Shown here: one piece after another, positions 7,090 through 29,792 of the stretch
Layout: each line of letters begins with the position of its first letter
How positions within the stretch are numbered: the first letter of the stretch is position 1
NCBI GenBank assembly: GCA_044233495.1
Contig: JBIIJX010000003.1
Coordinates: 1 to 40,763 of the forward strand
Source: Candidatus Nanopelagicales bacterium
Lineage (GTDB): Bacteria; Actinomycetota; Actinomycetes; S36-B12
Length of the DNA stretch: 40,763 bases
Direction: 5' to 3'
The notes under the pieces: generated by a model
Databases searched by the model: none
What the model was told of the DNA's origin: nothing
What the model saw: only the letters and a program-made list of their open reading frames with translations
Position numbers and translations under genes: made by a program

Positions 7090-8009
7090 GCCGACCTCCT
7101 GAATTTCCTGGATGCGTAGTTGAACGTCTGATGGGCGATTCCCGGAAGTGTCACCTGGAAGTGGTGCTCGCGCGTCCAGGCATCGGCCTTCTCGTCCGCA
7201 CGCACGGGCACCGGCTCCGTCGGCAGGACCACTGACCCCACCGGCAGTGTGTCGACATCAACCAGCGTATGTGTCGCATCCCCGCCGAACCCGATGTTCG
7301 CCACGAGGTTCGTGTTGCACGTGGCGATCAACTGATCCTGTCGCATCGCTGCGAACACCAGCTGGGCGTCCCAGGTGTCGACCTGCTTGCGAGCCATGAG
7401 CTCGAAGGTCATGGCCCAGAAGAGTGCTCCGGAGAGCGTCGAGCCTCCGCTGGTCCACAGCTTCCTTGCCGGCAGATCACGTCGCCAGCCAGCGATGTCG
7501 AGCCGATAGGTGTCCCAAGACCGTCGCCAGGTTGCCCATCCCCAGATATGGGCCACCCTGCTGAAGCGGTATGCGGCCTCCGGGTTCGTCTGCCCCTCGA
7601 TGGGCACGAAGTTGCAGCCCGTCACCGCGAATACGCGCGGGTCGCTCTCATACCGATCGAGGAGTTCGGAGCAGAAGCCGAAGAAGCTCGGATCGGGAAT
7701 GATGTCGTCCTCGAGGATGATTCCGCGATCGACCCGGGAGAAGAACCACGAGATCGCCGTGCTGACACCACGCCCGCATCCGAGATTCGCCTCCTGAGCC
7801 AGAGTCTCCACCTCGCAGGGCCAGTCGATGGTGTCGACGAGGTCCCGGCACTCCTGGACCTTGCGGTCCTCTCCAACCCTCGTCGCGCGAGGTCCGTCGA
7901 TGGCGACGAAGACACGGGTCGCACTGACGTCGCGCAGTCGCTGTAGGACCTGGGCGAGCAGATCAGGTCGATTGAAGGCGATGACCAGGATCGGCTCAGT
8001 GACCGTCAC
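7086..8009 (-). CDS. GT-A nucleotide-diphospho-sugar transferase (HlpA-like)
   Basis: [45 protein letters not shown]. Confidence 0.8.
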
Positions 8010-14976: not shown

Positions 14977-15049
14977 GGGGCGGGTGGTCGCTGTCCACTG
15001 TGCGGCTCGCGAAAGGAGCGACGTCGCCGCTTTGGGTCCTGCATCGATG

Positions 15050-15120
15050 GGGAGAAGTGAGCCAAGAACCGCAGTTTCGATGGCGCTTACCTCGTTTGTC
15101 CCGCGTCACGGGACAAACGA
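15050..15120. repeat. Solo copy of composite palindromic (REP-like) element
   Basis: GGGAGAAGTGAGCCAA-N21-TTACCTCGTTTGTCCC-GCGTCAC-GGGACAAACGA; contains a perfect 12-bp stem 15092-15103/15109-15120; aligns without gaps to 28410-28480. Confidence 0.85.
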
Positions 15121-15121
15121 C

Positions 15122-16108
15122 TCAGGGGATCTGCCACAGGGCGTGCGGATCGTCCAGCAGCGCCCTGTCGTGCCCGACCATCGCCCGGGCCATGGAGTCG
15201 AAGTCGACCGAGTGCCGCCACCCGAGCTGGGAGTAGGCCGCGCGACTGTCGCCCACGAGGATGTTGGTGTCGACGGGCCGGCCCTCGGAGATGTCAGCCA
15301 CCACGTGGTCGCCCCAGTTCATGATGCCGGCCGCCTCGAAGGCCTTCCTGATGAAGAACGAGAGTCGATGGGAGATCCCCGTGGCAAGGATGTAGTCACG
15401 AGGTTCGTCCGCCCTGAGCATGAGTGTCATCCCGGTGACGTAGTCGGGGGCCCAGCCCCAGTCCCTGGCCACCTCGATGTTTCCGAGTTCCACGGTGTCC
15501 TGGAGCCCCGCCGCAATGCGGGCGACGGCTCGGGTGATCTTGCGCGTGACGAAGTTCTGGCCGCGCAGCGGCGACTCGTGGTTGTAGAGGATTGCGGACG
15601 TGGCGAAGAGGCCGCCCTGCCGCGCCTCGCGCAACAACTCGATGGCAGCCGCCTTGGAGCGCGCATACGGAGTCTGGGGAGAGAACTCCGAAGTCTCGGT
15701 CTGGGGTGATCGATCCGCGCCCTCGAAGACCGTGCCTGACGCGGCTTCGAGCAGCCGGGGTTGGCCGTTGCCGGACCTGATCACACTCAGCGCCCCGGAA
15801 ACCAGAGCCCGAACGGCATCGACATTGACCTGCAGGGTGAGCTCGGGGTTGTTCACCGACTCCATGATGGAACTGATGCCACCGAGGTTGTAGATCTCAT
15901 CAGGTTCTGCTTCGACGACGAGCCGGCGAAGGGCATCGGAGTCGGCGAGATCGCAATCCACAACCGTCGCACCGGGCACGTAGCGGAGGTACTCCGCAAC
16001 GTCGGTGCCCGGCTTGACCACCGCCACAACCTCATGACCGGCGCGGCAGAGGCGGGCACTGAGGATCGTGCCGTCCTGACCGGCGGCTCCGGTGACGAGG
16101 GCACGCAT
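15122..16108 (-). CDS. GMD-like SDR, possibly GDP-4-keto-6-deoxymannose reductase
   Basis: TGAAGQDG, YARSK, NHESPLRG..FVTRKI, RDWGWAPDY; the GMD TSE motif is replaced by SGT. Confidence 0.75.
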   Translation of the reverse strand: MRALVTGAAGQDGTILSARLCRAGHEVVAVVKPGTDVAEYLRYVPGATVVDCDLADSDALRRLVVEAEPDEIYNLGGISSIMESVNNPELTLQVNVDAVRALVSGALSVIRSGNGQPRLLEAASGTVFEGADRSPQTETSEFSPQTPYARSKAAAIELLREARQGGLFATSAILYNHESPLRGQNFVTRKITRAVARIAAGLQDTVELGNIEVARDWGWAPDYVTGMTLMLRADEPRDYILATGISHRLSFFIRKAFEAAGIMNWGDHVVADISEGRPVDTNILVGDSRAAYSQLGWRHSVDFDSMARAMVGHDRALLDDPHALWQIP

Positions 16109-25997: not shown

Positions 25998-27260
25998 ATG
26001 TCACGCCCAACCACCCGCCTGACGCGCGGACTGCTGTCCGCCGCCCTCGTCCTCGGCATGACTGCAGGCGGTGCGCTCGCCTTCGGCGCGCCCGCCGCCG
26101 CGGCCGCGAAGGGCTTCATCGCCGCGCCCAACAGCATGGTCGGGATCGAGACCCAGATCGTCATCAGTGCACCCCAGGCGGTCGGGCAGACCGTCACGAT
26201 CGGAGCGCAGGTCGGCGGGTTCTCCAGCACCATGCAGACCACGATCGGGTCCAACGGCTACGGATCCGTGACGTGGACCCCCGGAGCCCCCGGCACGTGG
26301 GTGTTCAACGGCTTGGGCACTATCGCCAGCCTCGGCTCCACCAGCGCAACCGTCGTTCCCATGCCCACCTACACAGTGCTGATGGCGCAGAACAACGTGC
26401 AGCAGAACGCCAGCAACACCCTCGAGGCGATCGTCGTCGCACCCCTCGGCAACCTCAACCCCACCGGCACCGTCAACCTGCAGTACGGCAGCGGGGTGGC
26501 CATCTCGACGGCTCCCCTGACGGGTGGGATCGGCAACTCGAGCTCCACGGCGCTGCTGCCGTGGACGCCGACCCAGTCAGGCAACATCAACATCCAGGCC
26601 ACCTACACCTCCGACAACGGTGCCTTCACCGGGTCCACGAGTCCGATCTCGAACCCCAACTCCACCTCGGCATCTACGCCCCTCGCGATTCGGTGGCCCG
26701 CCAACCTGTACGTCGGGGAGCCCACCGTCCTCCAGGGCGTGATCGGCAACGGGTTCCCGCCGGGCACCGTCGCTTTCACCTTCAACACCACGGGGATCAG
26801 CGGATCCATCCCGACGACGAACGGCGTGGCCAGCTTCCAGTGGGCACCGCCCGCAGGCGGGATCAACACCATCTCCGCGTCCTACACGGGTGCCACTGGC
26901 TCTCCCGGCAGCCTCGTCTGGTCGAATGGCACCTCCAGCCAGCTCGTGACGGTGAACCCGACTCGCCCGACCGACAACATCACGGTCGATCCGCCCGGCC
27001 AGCCAGTCTGGAACATCGCGCAGCCCATCACCATGCAGGCCGGCTCGACGGTGACACTCGCGGGCACCAGCCAGTCGGGCACGACGGTCATCTTTAGCGA
27101 GCAGGGCAACTGCGTGATCGCCGGTGCCGTGCTCACGGCCCTGTCGCCCGGCCAGTGCCAGGTGACGGCGCAGAGCCCGGGAACCGCAGCGATCAAGCCC
27201 GGCAGTGAGACCTACACGATCACTGTGACGGCACCGCCGCGTCGCCCCGCGCGTCGCTAG
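25998..27260 (+). CDS. Secreted Ser/Thr/Gly-rich Ig-like repeat surface protein
   Basis: GAGGAGG RBS; signal peptide ending in poly-Ala; beta-strand repeats (PTGTV..., ATYTSD, ASYTG); C..G.C.VTA last domain. Confidence 0.7.
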   Translation: MSRPTTRLTRGLLSAALVLGMTAGGALAFGAPAAAAAKGFIAAPNSMVGIETQIVISAPQAVGQTVTIGAQVGGFSSTMQTTIGSNGYGSVTWTPGAPGTWVFNGLGTIASLGSTSATVVPMPTYTVLMAQNNVQQNASNTLEAIVVAPLGNLNPTGTVNLQYGSGVAISTAPLTGGIGNSSSTALLPWTPTQSGNINIQATYTSDNGAFTGSTSPISNPNSTSASTPLAIRWPANLYVGEPTVLQGVIGNGFPPGTVAFTFNTTGISGSIPTTNGVASFQWAPPAGGINTISASYTGATGSPGSLVWSNGTSSQLVTVNPTRPTDNITVDPPGQPVWNIAQPITMQAGSTVTLAGTSQSGTTVIFSEQGNCVIAGAVLTALSPGQCQVTAQSPGTAAIKPGSETYTITVTAPPRRPARR

Positions 27261-27262
27261 TC

Positions 27263-27338
27263 CGTTAGTCCCGCGACACGGGAGAGGTGAGCCAATTCGA
27301 CCCCTCATGGGTCCACTTGGTTCACCTCTCCCGTCTCG
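27263..27338. repeat. Composite palindromic element, left flank of the nuclease gene (inverted orientation)
   Basis: CGTTAGTCCC-GCGACAC-GGGAGAGGTGAGCCAA-N21-TTGGTTCACCTCTCCC; arms 27278-27295 and 27317-27334 are complementary at 17 of 18 positions. Confidence 0.85.
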
Positions 27339-27353
27339 GTCACCTGTCATGAC

Positions 27354-28361
27354 CTACGAGGATCGTCTGACGCGGCTGTAGGACGAGGCTCTCCGGATCT
27401 CGTCCGCCACTCCGCGCATCGAACCCTGGGCAGCCGACCAATCCCACCTCACCACGGGGAATCCCAGGCTTCTGATCCGATCCTCGCGCCTCTTCTCCCT
27501 CACAAGATCCTCACGACGGACGTACTTCTCCACGCCATCGGCCTCTCCGACGACGCCGTAAGCCTCGAACAGCATGTCCACGATGCCCACGAGCCCCCGA
27601 GCGTCATGCAGTGGTACCTGCAAGCGCGGCTCCGGCATACCCGCTCGGACGAGACGCACACGAGACAGGGACTCCAAGGGGCTCTGCGATCCAGTGCGGG
27701 CGTGGCCCAGAGCCTGGCGCGCGATCCCTGATCCGGCCAGGTGCGTCCATCGACCGCTGTACTCCGCGATGGCAGCCAGCACTTCCGGTGCCTGCCAGGC
27801 CACAGCGTCGAGTGTCACCACTCCCCAGTCGACGTCACCCGCCATGGCGGCCGTCCAGGCTGCCAGATTCCGGCCCGTGGTCGGAAGGCCAGCGTGCACC
27901 GTCAGATCGGCGTCATCGATATCCAGAATGTGAATGGTGGCAGCCGGCAAGTGCTCCGGCTTGCATATCCGCCTGCGAAGTGCACGGCTGTCGCGACCGA
28001 TAGGGCGAACCAGCTCGATGTGACCCAGGAGTCGACTGTCGACGGGAATCCCCTGGAGCAGAGCTGCCGTCACCCCGAAGCAGGCGACCGGGCCCTCGAT
28101 CGCTGCGCAAGCCGCTGCAGCGAGGAGCAGGTGCCGAGCCTGAGGGGTTACGGCGCCTTCGACCACGTGACGATCCGCGTAGACACCGTGGTGAAGACGC
28201 ACCCAGGTGCCGTTGCGACGCATGGTCAGAACTGCCGTGGGTTCGAGTCCCCACGCTGCAAGGTCGCTGCGGCGGAAGACCCCTCCCTGCGCTCCCGCCC
28301 GGACGCGTACGCGTTCACGCAGGATCTCCAGCTCGGCAGAGCTTCGTCGTGGGGCGGGCAT
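27354..28361 (-). CDS. AbiEi-type HTH + DUF559/Vsr-like PD-(D/E)XK nuclease domain protein
   Basis: QGGVFRRSDL...WVRLHHGVY N-terminus; SQSPLES, LQV, IVD, GEADGVEKY, EKRREDRIRSLGFPVVRW C-terminus. Confidence 0.8.
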   Translation of the reverse strand: MPAPRRSSAELEILRERVRVRAGAQGGVFRRSDLAAWGLEPTAVLTMRRNGTWVRLHHGVYADRHVVEGAVTPQARHLLLAAAACAAIEGPVACFGVTAALLQGIPVDSRLLGHIELVRPIGRDSRALRRRICKPEHLPAATIHILDIDDADLTVHAGLPTTGRNLAAWTAAMAGDVDWGVVTLDAVAWQAPEVLAAIAEYSGRWTHLAGSGIARQALGHARTGSQSPLESLSRVRLVRAGMPEPRLQVPLHDARGLVGIVDMLFEAYGVVGEADGVEKYVRREDLVREKRREDRIRSLGFPVVRWDWSAAQGSMRGVADEIRRASSYSRVRRSS

Positions 28362-28367
28362 AAGCGC

Positions 28368-28396
28368 ACTGTGCAGACACTTCCGCGGAGAGCCAA
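28368..28396 (-). promoter_or_regulatory. Putative promoter of the nuclease gene (leaderless)
   Basis: TTGGCT-N17-CACAGT-N6-ATG with an extended TG. Confidence 0.5.
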
Positions 28397-28409
28397 ACCG
28401 CTATCCACA

Positions 28410-28480
28410 GGGACGAGTGAGCCAAAAATCCCGGAAACGCACCTACCTTGCTCGTTTGTCCCACGTCGCGGGAGAAACGA
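28410..28480. repeat. Composite palindromic element, right flank of the nuclease gene
   Basis: GGGACGAGTGAGCCAA-N21-CTTGCTCGTTTGTCCC-ACGTCGC-GGGAGAAACGA. Confidence 0.85.
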
Positions 28481-28487
28481 CGAGAGG

Positions 28488-29792
28488 TCAGGTCAGGCGG
28501 GCGAAACCCGACTGAGCCGGCCCGTCGGGCAGAACCGCAGCAAGGCCAGCGTCATCGAGGGAGGCGAGCTCGGCATAGATCGGGGCCAGGGCCGCGAGGT
28601 AGCGCTCAGTGAGCTCAGGAGTGTGCGCGATCGAGGCGTAGAACACCGGACCGCCGAGGAACCCGGCCTGCAGGAGCCGAGTGGTGAGGAAGGTCTTCGC
28701 CAGCAGCGGGTCGCGTCCGTCGACGCTGTAGGTCGACAGTGCCGGCAATTCACCCATGGTGAGCGTCAGGCCGGCGTCCGCGGCGAGGCGGCGCCAGTGC
28801 GCCTGCATGTGCTCGCCGATCACGTGCACCCTCGCTGGTGCGTCCTCCTCCTGCATCACGTCGAGGGTGGCGAGGGCCGCCGTGGGGCCGATGCGCTCCG
28901 TCCAGAAGGTGCTGGAGATGAAGGTCGACTGCGCGGCCTGCATGACCTCCTCGCGGCCGATCACGGCGGTGATCGCGTAGCCGTTGCCGAGGGTCTTGCC
29001 GAACGTGGCGAGGTCTGGCTCGATCCCGTAGTGCAGGTGCAGGCCACCGAGCGTGCGACGGAAGCCCGATGTGCACTCGTCGAAGATCAGCACGGCCCCG
29101 TGCTTGGTTGCGAGCTCACGAACACCCTCGAGAAAGCCCGGTGCGGGCGGCGTGCTGCGCTGCACCTCCATGTAGATGGCACCGACCTGAGAATCACTCT
29201 CGAGGATCGAGCGCAGGGCGTCGAGGTCGTTGTAGCGGAACGGGATCGCGCTGCCCGCAAGAACCCGCGGCACGCCCTTGGGCTCCAGGCCCGGCAGTAG
29301 GTGACCGTCGAGGGAGTCGTCGGCACCGAGGTTCGCGGCGAGGTACCAGTCGTGCCAGCCGTGATACCCGCAGAACGCGACCTTGTCGCGGCCCGAGGCC
29401 GCTCGGGCGATGCGCACCGCGATCGCGCAGATCTCGCCGCCACTTCGGGCGTAGCGGACCATGTCGGCCCATGGGTGCAGCTCGACGAGCCGATCGGCGA
29501 GCCACACCTCCTCAGGGGCGTTCAACGTCGAGAGGTTTCCCTTGGCAACCGTGCGCTGCACGGCCTCGTCAACCTTCGGATGGGAGTAGCCGAGGATGTT
29601 CGTGCCGATCCCCATGAAGCCGAAGTCGAGGTATTCGACTCCGTCGAGATCCCAGATGCTGACGCCGCTCGTGCGGTCGAAGTAGGCGGGCCAGCCAGCG
29701 GGCAGCTGCAGCTCCGCGCGCTTGCTCAGCAGCATCGACCCCCCCGGTATCCGCTGCTTGGCGTGCTTCCAGAGTTCGGCGCCGGTGCTCAT
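28488..29792 (-). CDS. Class-III PLP aminotransferase (GSA-aminomutase-like, glycan-cluster type)
   Basis: IPGGSMLLSKR, ARSGGE, CGYHGWHDW, IFDECTSGFR, DLATFGKTLGNG, SSTFWTER; ATGA overlap with the upstream gene. Confidence 0.88.
   Translation of the reverse strand: MSTGAELWKHAKQRIPGGSMLLSKRAELQLPAGWPAYFDRTSGVSIWDLDGVEYLDFGFMGIGTNILGYSHPKVDEAVQRTVAKGNLSTLNAPEEVWLADRLVELHPWADMVRYARSGGEICAIAVRIARAASGRDKVAFCGYHGWHDWYLAANLGADDSLDGHLLPGLEPKGVPRVLAGSAIPFRYNDLDALRSILESDSQVGAIYMEVQRSTPPAPGFLEGVRELATKHGAVLIFDECTSGFRRTLGGLHLHYGIEPDLATFGKTLGNGYAITAVIGREEVMQAAQSTFISSTFWTERIGPTAALATLDVMQEEDAPARVHVIGEHMQAHWRRLAADAGLTLTMGELPALSTYSVDGRDPLLAKTFLTTRLLQAGFLGGPVFYASIAHTPELTERYLAALAPIYAELASLDDAGLAAVLPDGPAQSGFARLT

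Follow-up and report, generated by a model that had tools for sequence, protein, structure and literature searches.

The gene for P0001, a 335-aa protein, is bracketed in a draft genome of a Candidatus Nanopelagicales bacterium by two inverted copies of a composite palindrome, and the question raised by this locus is whether gene and palindromes belong together as a two-part system. Such a system would resemble the repetitive extragenic palindromic (REP) sequences and their REP-associated tyrosine transposases (RAYT), but with an unrelated enzyme. The sequence analysed, referred to here as the window, is the whole 40763 nt stretch at positions 1 to 40763 of contig JBIIJX010000003.1 (GenBank assembly GCA_044233495.1). 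It corresponds to contig C206 of the genome designated G000 (2.55 Mb in 294 contigs, 89% complete) and has a G+C content of 68%. When the gene and the palindromes were followed through 33 genomes of the genus, each repeat family was found to track its own clade of the gene.

Two gene clades and their repeat families

The features of the locus, and a further copy of the palindrome in the window, are as follows.

27263 to 27332, + strand: left arm, on the 3' side of the gene (repeat search, nhmmer E 2.9e-15, DNA fold)
27354 to 28361, - strand: nuclease-type gene encoding the 335-aa P0001 (open reading frame (ORF), Pfam, AlphaFold2 model, Foldseek)
28362 to 28400, - strand: promoter-like stretch (alignment of 13 clade-1 upstream regions)
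28401 to 28409, + strand: DnaA-box-like 9-mer CTATCCACA (motif carried by 13 of 13 clade-1 loci)
28410 to 28479, - strand: right arm, on the 5' side of the gene and inverted relative to the left arm (repeat search, nhmmer E 4.1e-17)
15050 to 15119, - strand: third composite copy, without a gene (nhmmer E 2.4e-17, fold z -3.8)

The initial annotation had described composite palindromes of ~70 bp inverted on both flanks of the gene, and these were confirmed in the sequence and by a repeat search, which paired 27263-27292 with 28450-28479 (30 nt, 73% complementary). The left copy reads CGTTAGTCCC-GCGACAC-GGGAGAGGTGAGCCAA-N21-TTGGTTCACCTCTCCC on the + strand and is made up of an outer 27-nt unit in degenerate form (27263-27289), a spacer hairpin of 21 nt and an inner half-unit (27317-27332) ending in TCCC. 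It starts 2 nt past the TAG stop codon (27258-27260) of a + strand gene for an immunoglobulin (Ig)-like protein (Big_3_5 in Pfam). The right copy, GGGACGAGTGAGCCAA-N21-CTTGCTCGTTTGTCCC-ACGTCGC-GGGAGAAACG, comprises an inner half-unit (28410-28425), a 21-nt spacer and an outer 27-nt unit (28453-28479), and ends 8 nt short of the stop codon (28488-28490) of a - strand class-III aminotransferase gene. The third copy includes a perfect 27-nt unit (15093-15119) located 2 nt past the stop codon of a - strand GDP-sugar dehydratase/epimerase gene (15122-16108). Each of the three copies therefore begins 2-8 nt past a neighbour's stop codon, and all have the same orientation relative to that neighbour.

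Further copies in the same genome (C147:4820-4906, C111:8863 and C111:8924) revealed that the building block is a 27-nt palindrome, CGTTTSTCCC-N7-GGGASAAACG. The layout of 16-bp arms, 21-bp spacer and 7-bp linker proposed in the initial annotation is thus as described, but its details are better read as 27-nt units separated by a 33-nt spacer, the 16-bp arm being the 3' half of one unit plus AGCCAA, and the partial arm the other half of the outer unit. In the many-copy congener G023, gene-less doublets and triplets have a unit period of 60 nt (27 + 33), each whole forming a long palindrome, and the 33-nt spacers share a loose palindromic consensus of AGCYAA, a short GC stem with a GAAA-like loop, and TTRGCT. 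In gene-bearing copies, the two halves of a would-be central unit lie on either side of the gene, which is placed exactly between them (...CACTTGTCCC/TGTGGA... gene .../GGGAGAAGTG...).

A profile built from the three window copies recovered them from the 2.55-Mb genome at the E values listed above and detected extra copies on C147 (8.7e-7) and C111 (0.0026), making it clear that the window arms are members of a repeat family despite their weak likeness to one another. Folded as single strands, the left arm gave -24 kcal/mol (z -6.1 relative to shuffled sequences) and the third copy (15047-15122) -18.3 kcal/mol, and the doublet on C147 had a z of -12.1. Sequences from two other metagenome studies differ from the left arm of the window at five places within 27316-27338, one of these changes (T27321C) converting a G-T wobble of the long hairpin to a G-C pair. 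No Rfam family reached its gathering score in the window, with chance-level matches alone (E up to 10) around the locus, and a scan of 27200-28520 for E. coli-type promoters and terminators returned none of either.

Homologues of P0001 were present in 32 of the 33 genomes. The flanks of the 17 close homologues (L031-L047; 43-100% identity) were searched for the 27-nt unit with up to 4 mismatches allowed, and it was found on both sides of the gene in 14. In 12 of these, the upstream unit started 118-137 nt ahead of the start codon, and in the other two (L044 and L047), where the alignments begin at residue 28 or 53, it started ~270-280 nt before the aligned region. The inner half-unit of these loci lay ~61 nt before the start codon, and the downstream half-unit 11-48 nt after the stop codon. 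Two loci had the unit on one side (L035, in a contig that ends 58 nt after the stop codon, and L043), and the remaining locus, L041, had a different long palindrome on both sides. Flanking inverted repeats in general were scored without gaps (+1/-2), a score of 18 or more being counted as strong. None of the 13 more distant homologues in the genus (L048-L060) was flanked by the 27-nt unit, and 12 of them had other inverted repeats with scores of 18-46.

At up to 2 mismatches, the 27-nt unit (family 1) was detected in 24 of the 33 genomes at 1-39 copies each and in none of 16 sampled genomes from other genera of the order, and a reversed-pattern control found none in any genome. The count of the motif that had been proposed for the genome thus uncovered a dispersed family, with 5 loci in G000 and up to 39 units in congeners. 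The 17 genomes carrying a clade-1 gene, the clade of P0001, had 4-39 units, whereas the 16 genomes without one had 0 (nine genomes), 1, 1, 2, 2, 3, 17 (G007) and 28 (G047). Of the two exceptions, G007 is only 53% complete and G047 retains a decayed clade-1 copy beside gltA, the citrate synthase gene.

Gene-less units were located after stop codons and tRNA genes, and at sites with short spacers the stop codons of the convergent neighbours extend the palindrome (TGACC...GGTCA, TGATC...GATCA). In an ORF-based placement test of G000, 15 of 19 repeat clusters were intergenic, a result not relied on here as the caller put the window copies inside spurious high-GC ORFs. The 60-61-nt period brought a CRISPR array to mind, but this was rejected, given that adjacent units are inverted, that a palindromic consensus is common to the spacers and that each of the dozens of loci has only 1-3 units. 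Integron attC sites were also dropped; no RYYYAAC/GTTRRRY cores were visible in the sequence by eye, no integrase search having been made.

A second cognate pair was found in the same genome. A paralogue of AbiEi-DUF559 type (G000 C18:3162-4175, - strand; 38% identity to P0001), referred to as the C18 paralogue, is flanked by a 29-nt palindrome, AGATTTGATCCG-N5-CGGATCAAATCT. This palindrome (family 2) occurs at 13 further loci on 12 other contigs (C2, C43, C48, C75, C90, C132, C137, C147, C172, C196, C207 and C246), mostly as inverted pairs 61 nt apart. With up to 3 mismatches, family-2 units numbered 24 in G000, 46 in G042, 16 in G011, 21 in G014, 14 in G012, 1 in G024, 3 in G021, 41 in G047, 3 in G015, 66 in G020 and 62 in G010, and were absent from the other 22 of the 33 genomes, again with a reversed-pattern control of 0. 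A clade-2 gene (37-42% identity to P0001) was present in 10 of these 11 genomes, and the eleventh, G021, has an unclassified split homologue. In an alignment of the paralogues read by eye, the nuclease part was visibly better conserved than the N-terminal and middle parts, which would fit a change in DNA specificity with the chemistry kept. In a third, more distant clade (L053-L059, in G008, G007, G003, G013, G043 and G001; 31-35% identity), the flank inverted repeats are shorter, of the type CGCCGAGACCAGCACCTGGCGTCG, and score 18-25.

Pair 1 was the only pair in nine genomes (G023, G022, G019, G045, G046, G018, G009, G002 and G005, among others), and G011, G014, G015 and G020 carry pair 2, no clade-1 gene and at most 2 family-1 units. 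A tree of 1.3 kb of gltA resolved the deep branches weakly (15 of 27 inner branches open), but placed G000 and G012, which carry both pairs, as sisters of G016 and G041 (support 99/92), which lack the gene; G016 has no units and G041 has two of family 1. The tree also placed G010, with 12 family-1 units, as sister to G020, with 2 (100/100). As G000 and G012 have sisters without the gene, the pattern is not the effect of a single clade. Co-variation of protein and repeat, the check put forward with the initial annotation, was accordingly seen in the genus and at the C18 paralogue, and cognate palindromes also flank homologues in other Actinobacteria (see below).

The predicted protein and its upstream region

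P0001 has an AbiEi-like winged-helix N-terminus, a middle domain and a C-terminal domain of the Vsr/DUF559 nuclease fold (approximately residues 225-310). In Pfam searches, AbiEi_4 (PF13338) matched P0001 above the cut-off (E 3.5e-9) and was found in all 15 members of the subfamily, and DUF559 (PF04480) in 11 of the 15 at E 0.1 or better (best 2.2e-6). A profile search of the PDB matched 3hrl at E 0.036. PADLOC reported AbiEi alone, NCBIfam held no family for P0001 or the C18 paralogue, and relatives are labelled 'AbiEi family antitoxin domain-containing protein' by NCBI.

An AlphaFold2 model of P0001 from an alignment of 15 sequences had a predicted local distance difference test (pLDDT) value of 88.1 and a predicted template modelling (TM) score (pTM) of 0.83. 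When it was compared with the PDB using Foldseek, the N-terminal and middle part matched AbiEi (6y8q; E 3.4e-4) and Rv2827c (1zel), and the C-terminal domain matched the catalytic domain of I-Bth0305I (3r3p; probability 0.99-1.00, TM score 0.58-0.68 normalised to the target), Vsr (1cw0 and 1vsr) and a DUF559 protein (3hrl; TM score 0.68, likewise normalised). D262, E273, D275, K279 and an EKxREDRxR helix are invariant in all 15 subfamily members, and P0001 includes a conserved GEADGxxKY motif. The Vsr/DUF559-type fold suggested in the initial annotation is therefore borne out by the model, the Foldseek matches and the invariant acidic and lysine residues, and nuclease activity is predicted. 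P0001 is modelled as an AbiEi-like DNA binder joined to a predicted Vsr-fold nuclease.

The same annotation had noted the lack of an AbiEii partner and a difference from the HUH-type enzymes of RAYT loci, and both points held. AbiEii (PF08843) had no match in the genome, which is 89% complete (control positive in 3 of 14 genomes), and the neighbours of the gene are the Ig-like and aminotransferase genes, with no AbiEii/DUF1814 gene alongside. No member of the Y1/RAYT transposase family (PF01797) was found in any of the 33 genomes (the control gave matches in 6 of 14), and P0001 matched just AbiEi_4 and, below the cut-off, DUF559.

When 13 clade-1 upstream regions were aligned, the inner half-unit was followed directly by TGTGGAYR in every one, and then by TTG (-35-like), ~18 nt, CAnnGT (-10-like), 6-7 nt and ATG. 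The -10-like element in the window is CACAGT (28368-28373 on the + strand). The conservation of this layout suggests a promoter giving a leaderless mRNA. A 171-nt contig from an RNA library maps to 27347-27517, though it does not show transcription.

The 9-mer CTATCCACA abuts the inner end of the upstream arm and reads TGTGGATAG toward the gene, and CCTGTGGA is present at about -48 in 13 of 13 clade-1 loci. Among the upstream regions of the window gene, L031-L060 and L094-L173, most have a DnaA-box-like motif at a fixed position that separates the upstream arm from the start codon. Of 104 loci, 52 have RTCCACA in the forward and 36 in the reverse orientation within 150 nt upstream of the gene, as against 16 occurrences in 95.5 kb of gene bodies. 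The reverse orientation at approximately -37 to -54, most often -48, is that of genus clades 1 and 2. Most Kribbella-type loci have the opposite orientation, with the forward motif at approximately -21 as TTATCCACA or TTGTCCACA. Table 1 of PMC4285127 gives these 9-mers as DnaA boxes with high affinity, in E. coli and in M. tuberculosis and S. coelicolor. The site may be read by DnaA or by the winged helix of the protein itself.

Chromosomal sites and relatives outside the genus

Judged by their flanks, the close homologues occupy four or more chromosomal sites. Site A, beside the gltA stop codon, is filled by an intact copy in 12 genomes (12 copies, of which one is inverted relative to gltA), and further comprises the decayed copy in G047 and a copy in G010 that has another gene between it and gltA. 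The inverted copy (L090; G022:C295) could have arisen from inversion between the inverted arms or from a separate insertion. Site B is that of the window, after the Ig-like gene, and is filled in G000, G024:C36 and G042:C18. Site C is in G023 (C68), and L041 is at another site.

Empty sites in relatives, which had been named as something to look for, were seen at sites A, B and C. Site A carries neither gene nor repeat in G000, where a 38-nt spacer separates dapD and gltA, or in G016, G011 and G044. Beside gltA in G001 (C63; L067), a run of N stands where the cassette would sit. At site B, the two convergent neighbours in G016 and G011 are the same and enclose an ordinary hairpin, and a plain hairpin also follows the Ig-like gene in G001 and G041. 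Site C in G000 has a plain 10-bp hairpin. As the empty sites lack both the gene and the repeats, the arms come and go with the gene.

At site B of G023, two arms were found around a 100-nt filler with no gene. The filler was considered as a gene remnant, but in blastn and translated comparisons the arms alone matched and the interior was unaligned, hence a remnant was not shown. In the gene tree, the site-C copy of G023 is sister to the site-B copy of the window (91/89) inside a site-B clade with 100/100 support. We read this as a relocation from site B to site C in G023 with the interior lost at site B, the order of events being inferred.

A wider scan used one genome per species. The best 80 of 544 relatives, combined with 30 loci from the genus, gave 110 loci, of which 101 had flanks that could be scored. 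The public relatives closest to the window carry labels of uncultured actinobacterial metagenome-assembled genomes from freshwater or groundwater, several of them Candidatus Nanopelagicales. Strong inverted repeats flanked 68 of the 101 loci (25 of the 28 from the genus and 43 of the other 73), compared with 3 of 101 mismatched flank pairs. As a control, 300 random long ORFs of G000 had a median score of 9 and a 95th percentile of 12. One ORF alone reached 18 or more (score 27), and it was the C18 paralogue of P0001 itself.

The sequences of the flank repeats vary by group, among them Kribbella, Jiangellales, Marmoricola, Aeromicrobium and some Arthrobacter. In Kribbella hippodromi, BLAST matched the 93-nt arm of the locus 86 times across its own genome of 8 Mb (counting both strands, the matches often being clustered), compared with 0-3 times in three other records of Kribbella and 27 times in a fifth one, titled Streptomyces sp. 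Three Kribbella genomes encode 4-11 divergent P0001 homologues each, and the gene is therefore of low copy number, unlike an active insertion sequence. Many homologues in the protein search were on contigs of 1.1-1.7 kb, a size close to that of the cassette, which would be expected if the repeated arms interrupt the assemblies.

In E. coli K-12 (L200), a GC-rich inverted pair (7217-7241/7396-7420; 25 nt, 80%) is found near ycjD (7408-7761, - strand), which encodes DUF559 alone. Both members of the pair are found at the 3' end of the gene or past it and do not bracket it, and the upstream spacer has a perfect 17-nt hairpin.

Cassette and gene-less copy of the window are both enclosed by a cell-envelope glycan cluster (11365-31723). 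It includes a gene for a 1199-aa fusion of FkbM methyltransferase and glycosyltransferase family 4 (GT4), GDP-mannose 4,6-dehydratase-type genes, a Wzt-type ATP-binding cassette (ABC) ATPase gene with Wzt_C, and GT2 and GT4 genes.

Comparison with known systems and alternative explanations

The features of REP sequences, REP doublets (REPINs) and RAYTs used for comparison are those given in passages of PMC3733652 and of two bioRxiv preprints (10.1101/119735 and 10.1101/2021.07.10.451892). As in those systems, a low-copy gene is located between inverted cognate palindromes, and copies of this repeat are scattered after genes as inverted doublets. Every gene clade likewise has its own repeat family, two pairs can coexist in one genome, and descent is largely vertical with rare moves. 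However, the enzyme here is predicted to be an AbiEi-like binder with a Vsr-fold nuclease and not an HUH/Y1 protein, the units lack a GTAG tag, and the hosts are Actinobacteria. Actinobacteria have 0 occurrences in the text of the 2013 REP survey (PMC3733652), and a passage there states that other REP super-families 'apparently lack a dedicated transposase'.

Other known systems share parts of this picture. EDxHD homing endonucleases such as I-Bth0305I have the C-terminal fold predicted here, a multidomain structure with an N-terminal DNA reader and a pseudopalindromic target (described in passages of PMC3239194), but the present gene is outside any intron or intein, its long inverted arms are also dispersed without it, orthologous empty sites lack the presumed target unit, and the motif of the present protein is GEADGxxKY. 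The AbiE type IV toxin-antitoxin system and Rv2827c are matched by the N-terminal winged helix and middle domain of P0001, whereas a fused nuclease domain takes the place of AbiEii. DUF559/YcjD-type proteins match the nuclease domain, but P0001 is three times longer owing to its DNA-reading module, and the inverted pair near ycjD forms no bracket. Insertion sequences (IS) with miniature inverted-repeat transposable elements (MITEs) also have terminal inverted repeats and gene-less derivatives of arm plus arm, but here there is no DDE, serine or tyrosine transposase and the gene is low-copy and divergent. The ends of Tn5/IS50 carry a DnaA box, and in both cases a host DnaA-type site adjoins the end of the element.

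No published link between AbiEi-DUF559 proteins and cognate repeats, and no paper naming both DUF559 and AbiEi, was found in the literature searched, which excluded supplementary files. The present analysis contributes two observations, that two cognate pairs of gene and repeat track one another reciprocally within one genus and that a DnaA-box-like site accompanies the gene.

Taken from the observed anatomy, cognate pairing, co-occurrence, presence or absence at several sites, predicted fold and conserved catalytic-type residues, the explanation that we favour is a REPIN/RAYT-like two-part system run by a Vsr-fold nuclease. We consider this probable, though by no means assured, because the anatomy and distribution match that picture point for point, with an unrelated enzyme. 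One part would be a low-copy, mostly vertically inherited gene that combines an AbiEi-type sequence reader with a Vsr-fold (DUF559) nuclease and carries its own putative promoter and a DnaA-box-like site. The other part would be the palindromic units, of 27 nt here, arranged as inverted doublets and triplets with a 60-nt period both around the gene and without it. The N-terminal and middle domains would read the cognate palindrome, giving each clade its specificity, and the nuclease would nick or cut the unit as a duplex, cruciform or hairpin. The cut may then drive the copying, movement or maintenance of doublets in trans and, rarely, relocate the whole cassette of gene plus arms. The repeats probably also serve the host as 3'-end hairpins that replace ordinary terminators, as they stand where relatives have plain hairpins. 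The broader proposal, of an undescribed and widespread actinobacterial class of mobile or semi-domesticated elements in which a Vsr-fold nuclease acts as the specificity-giving 'transposase' of REPIN-like repeats and is coupled to DnaA via the box at the inner end of the upstream arm, is offered tentatively, as a possibility that we would not yet call probable.

A number of observations weigh against the two-part system. Related genomes are not independent, leaving approximately 4-5 independent contrasts, and linked DNA is co-inherited in any case. The match of DUF559 to P0001 itself is sub-threshold (E 0.069; 13.5 bits against a cut-off of 20.6). The window's own arms are decayed: the flank score of the locus is 9, equal to the median of random genes, as the arms are poorly alike on their own, and the right arm folds at -9.7 kcal/mol with a z of 0.08, indicating that its long hairpin has decayed and the outer 27-nt unit alone survives. 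Family-1 copies are few in G000 itself (5 loci), and 33 of the 101 loci in the wider scan lack a strong flank repeat. At the junctions inspected, no target-site duplication and no clean insertion junction was seen, filled sites replacing the old spacer and not splitting it, and sites A, B and C yielded no simple composite without a gene. The species of the window is present in many lake, river and groundwater metagenomes, and contigs from three studies span the whole locus at 99% identity or more. These contigs, which can miss rare excised forms, contained no joints or other sign of ongoing excision, and the locus is therefore stable in present-day populations. Binding or cutting of the repeats by the protein, the direction of causation and any role of DnaA are what we infer from the sequences.

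The position of the gene, exactly between the halves of a unit (...TCCC/gene/GGGA...) where gene-less triplets have a 7-nt loop, could also be that of a selfish gene of the homing-endonuclease type. The repeats would then exist independently, the nuclease cutting the centre of a unit and the gene being copied into the break by repair. The resemblance of the nuclease domain to the catalytic domain of I-Bth0305I is in keeping with this, the latter being a homodimer centred on a pseudopalindrome (passages of PMC3239194). However, the repeat is wholly missing from empty sites A, B and C, indicating that the arms arrive with the gene and not earlier. Repeats of families 1 and 2 are absent or limited to at most 3 units where the cognate gene is missing, except in G007 and G047, which is unexpected if they arose independently. 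The spacers also differ among copies, leaving little homology for ectopic repair, and we regard homing as unlikely. An ordinary IS-like transposon, in which the gene and terminal inverted repeats of ~70 nt would be autonomous and the gene-less composites would be MITEs formed by internal deletion, would account for the presence or absence of the whole unit at three sites, the arms around a filler at site B of G023, the arm-plus-arm composites and the many homologues on cassette-sized contigs. It differs from the two-part system mainly in degree, as an active selfish copy versus a domesticated single copy. We find it quite unlikely given the low and divergent copies (1-2 per clade per genome, and 4-11 in the three Kribbella genomes), the synteny of the gene beside gltA in 12 or more species, the lack of target-site duplications and a G023 filler that does not align to the gene.

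Two further explanations were considered. The protein could be a non-mobile regulator, or a nucleoid- or terminator-binding factor, with the dispersed palindromes as its regulon and the flanking sites autoregulatory. The AbiEi-like N-terminal part, the position of repeats at gene ends and the autoregulation of AbiEi antitoxins via inverted repeats (passages of PMC7319586) point in this direction. The nuclease-type residues are invariant, however, and the gene has such sites on either side, which accompany it from one chromosomal site to another. Copy numbers also range from 0 to 66 between sister species and two pairs that do not cross-react share one genome, so that a purely regulatory role appears very unlikely. 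Finally, the arms might be 3'-end hairpins of two convergent neighbours with the gene between them by chance, as all three window copies are 2-8 nt past a stop codon in the same relative orientation and relatives show plain hairpins at the same places. Coincidence is nevertheless highly improbable, as the bracket recurs at four or more unrelated sites and, with other sequences, in other genera, the control rates being 1 in 300 for random genes and 3 in 101 for mismatched pairs.

REP-type palindromes are among the commonest repeats in bacteria, and to our knowledge RAYT tyrosine transposases are the only enzyme class tied to them. Here, an unrelated enzyme shows the REP/RAYT genomic signature, including two non-overlapping cognate pairs in one genus. 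The occurrence of the same layout in cultured Kribbella species makes the system directly testable, and the conserved DnaA-type box provides a further, as yet unexplained, handle. If the nuclease does act on the repeats, this would give a function to the very large 'AbiEi antitoxin domain-containing'/'DUF559' family, would explain the origin of palindromic repeats in high-GC Gram-positive bacteria and would amount to a new chemistry for mobile DNA.

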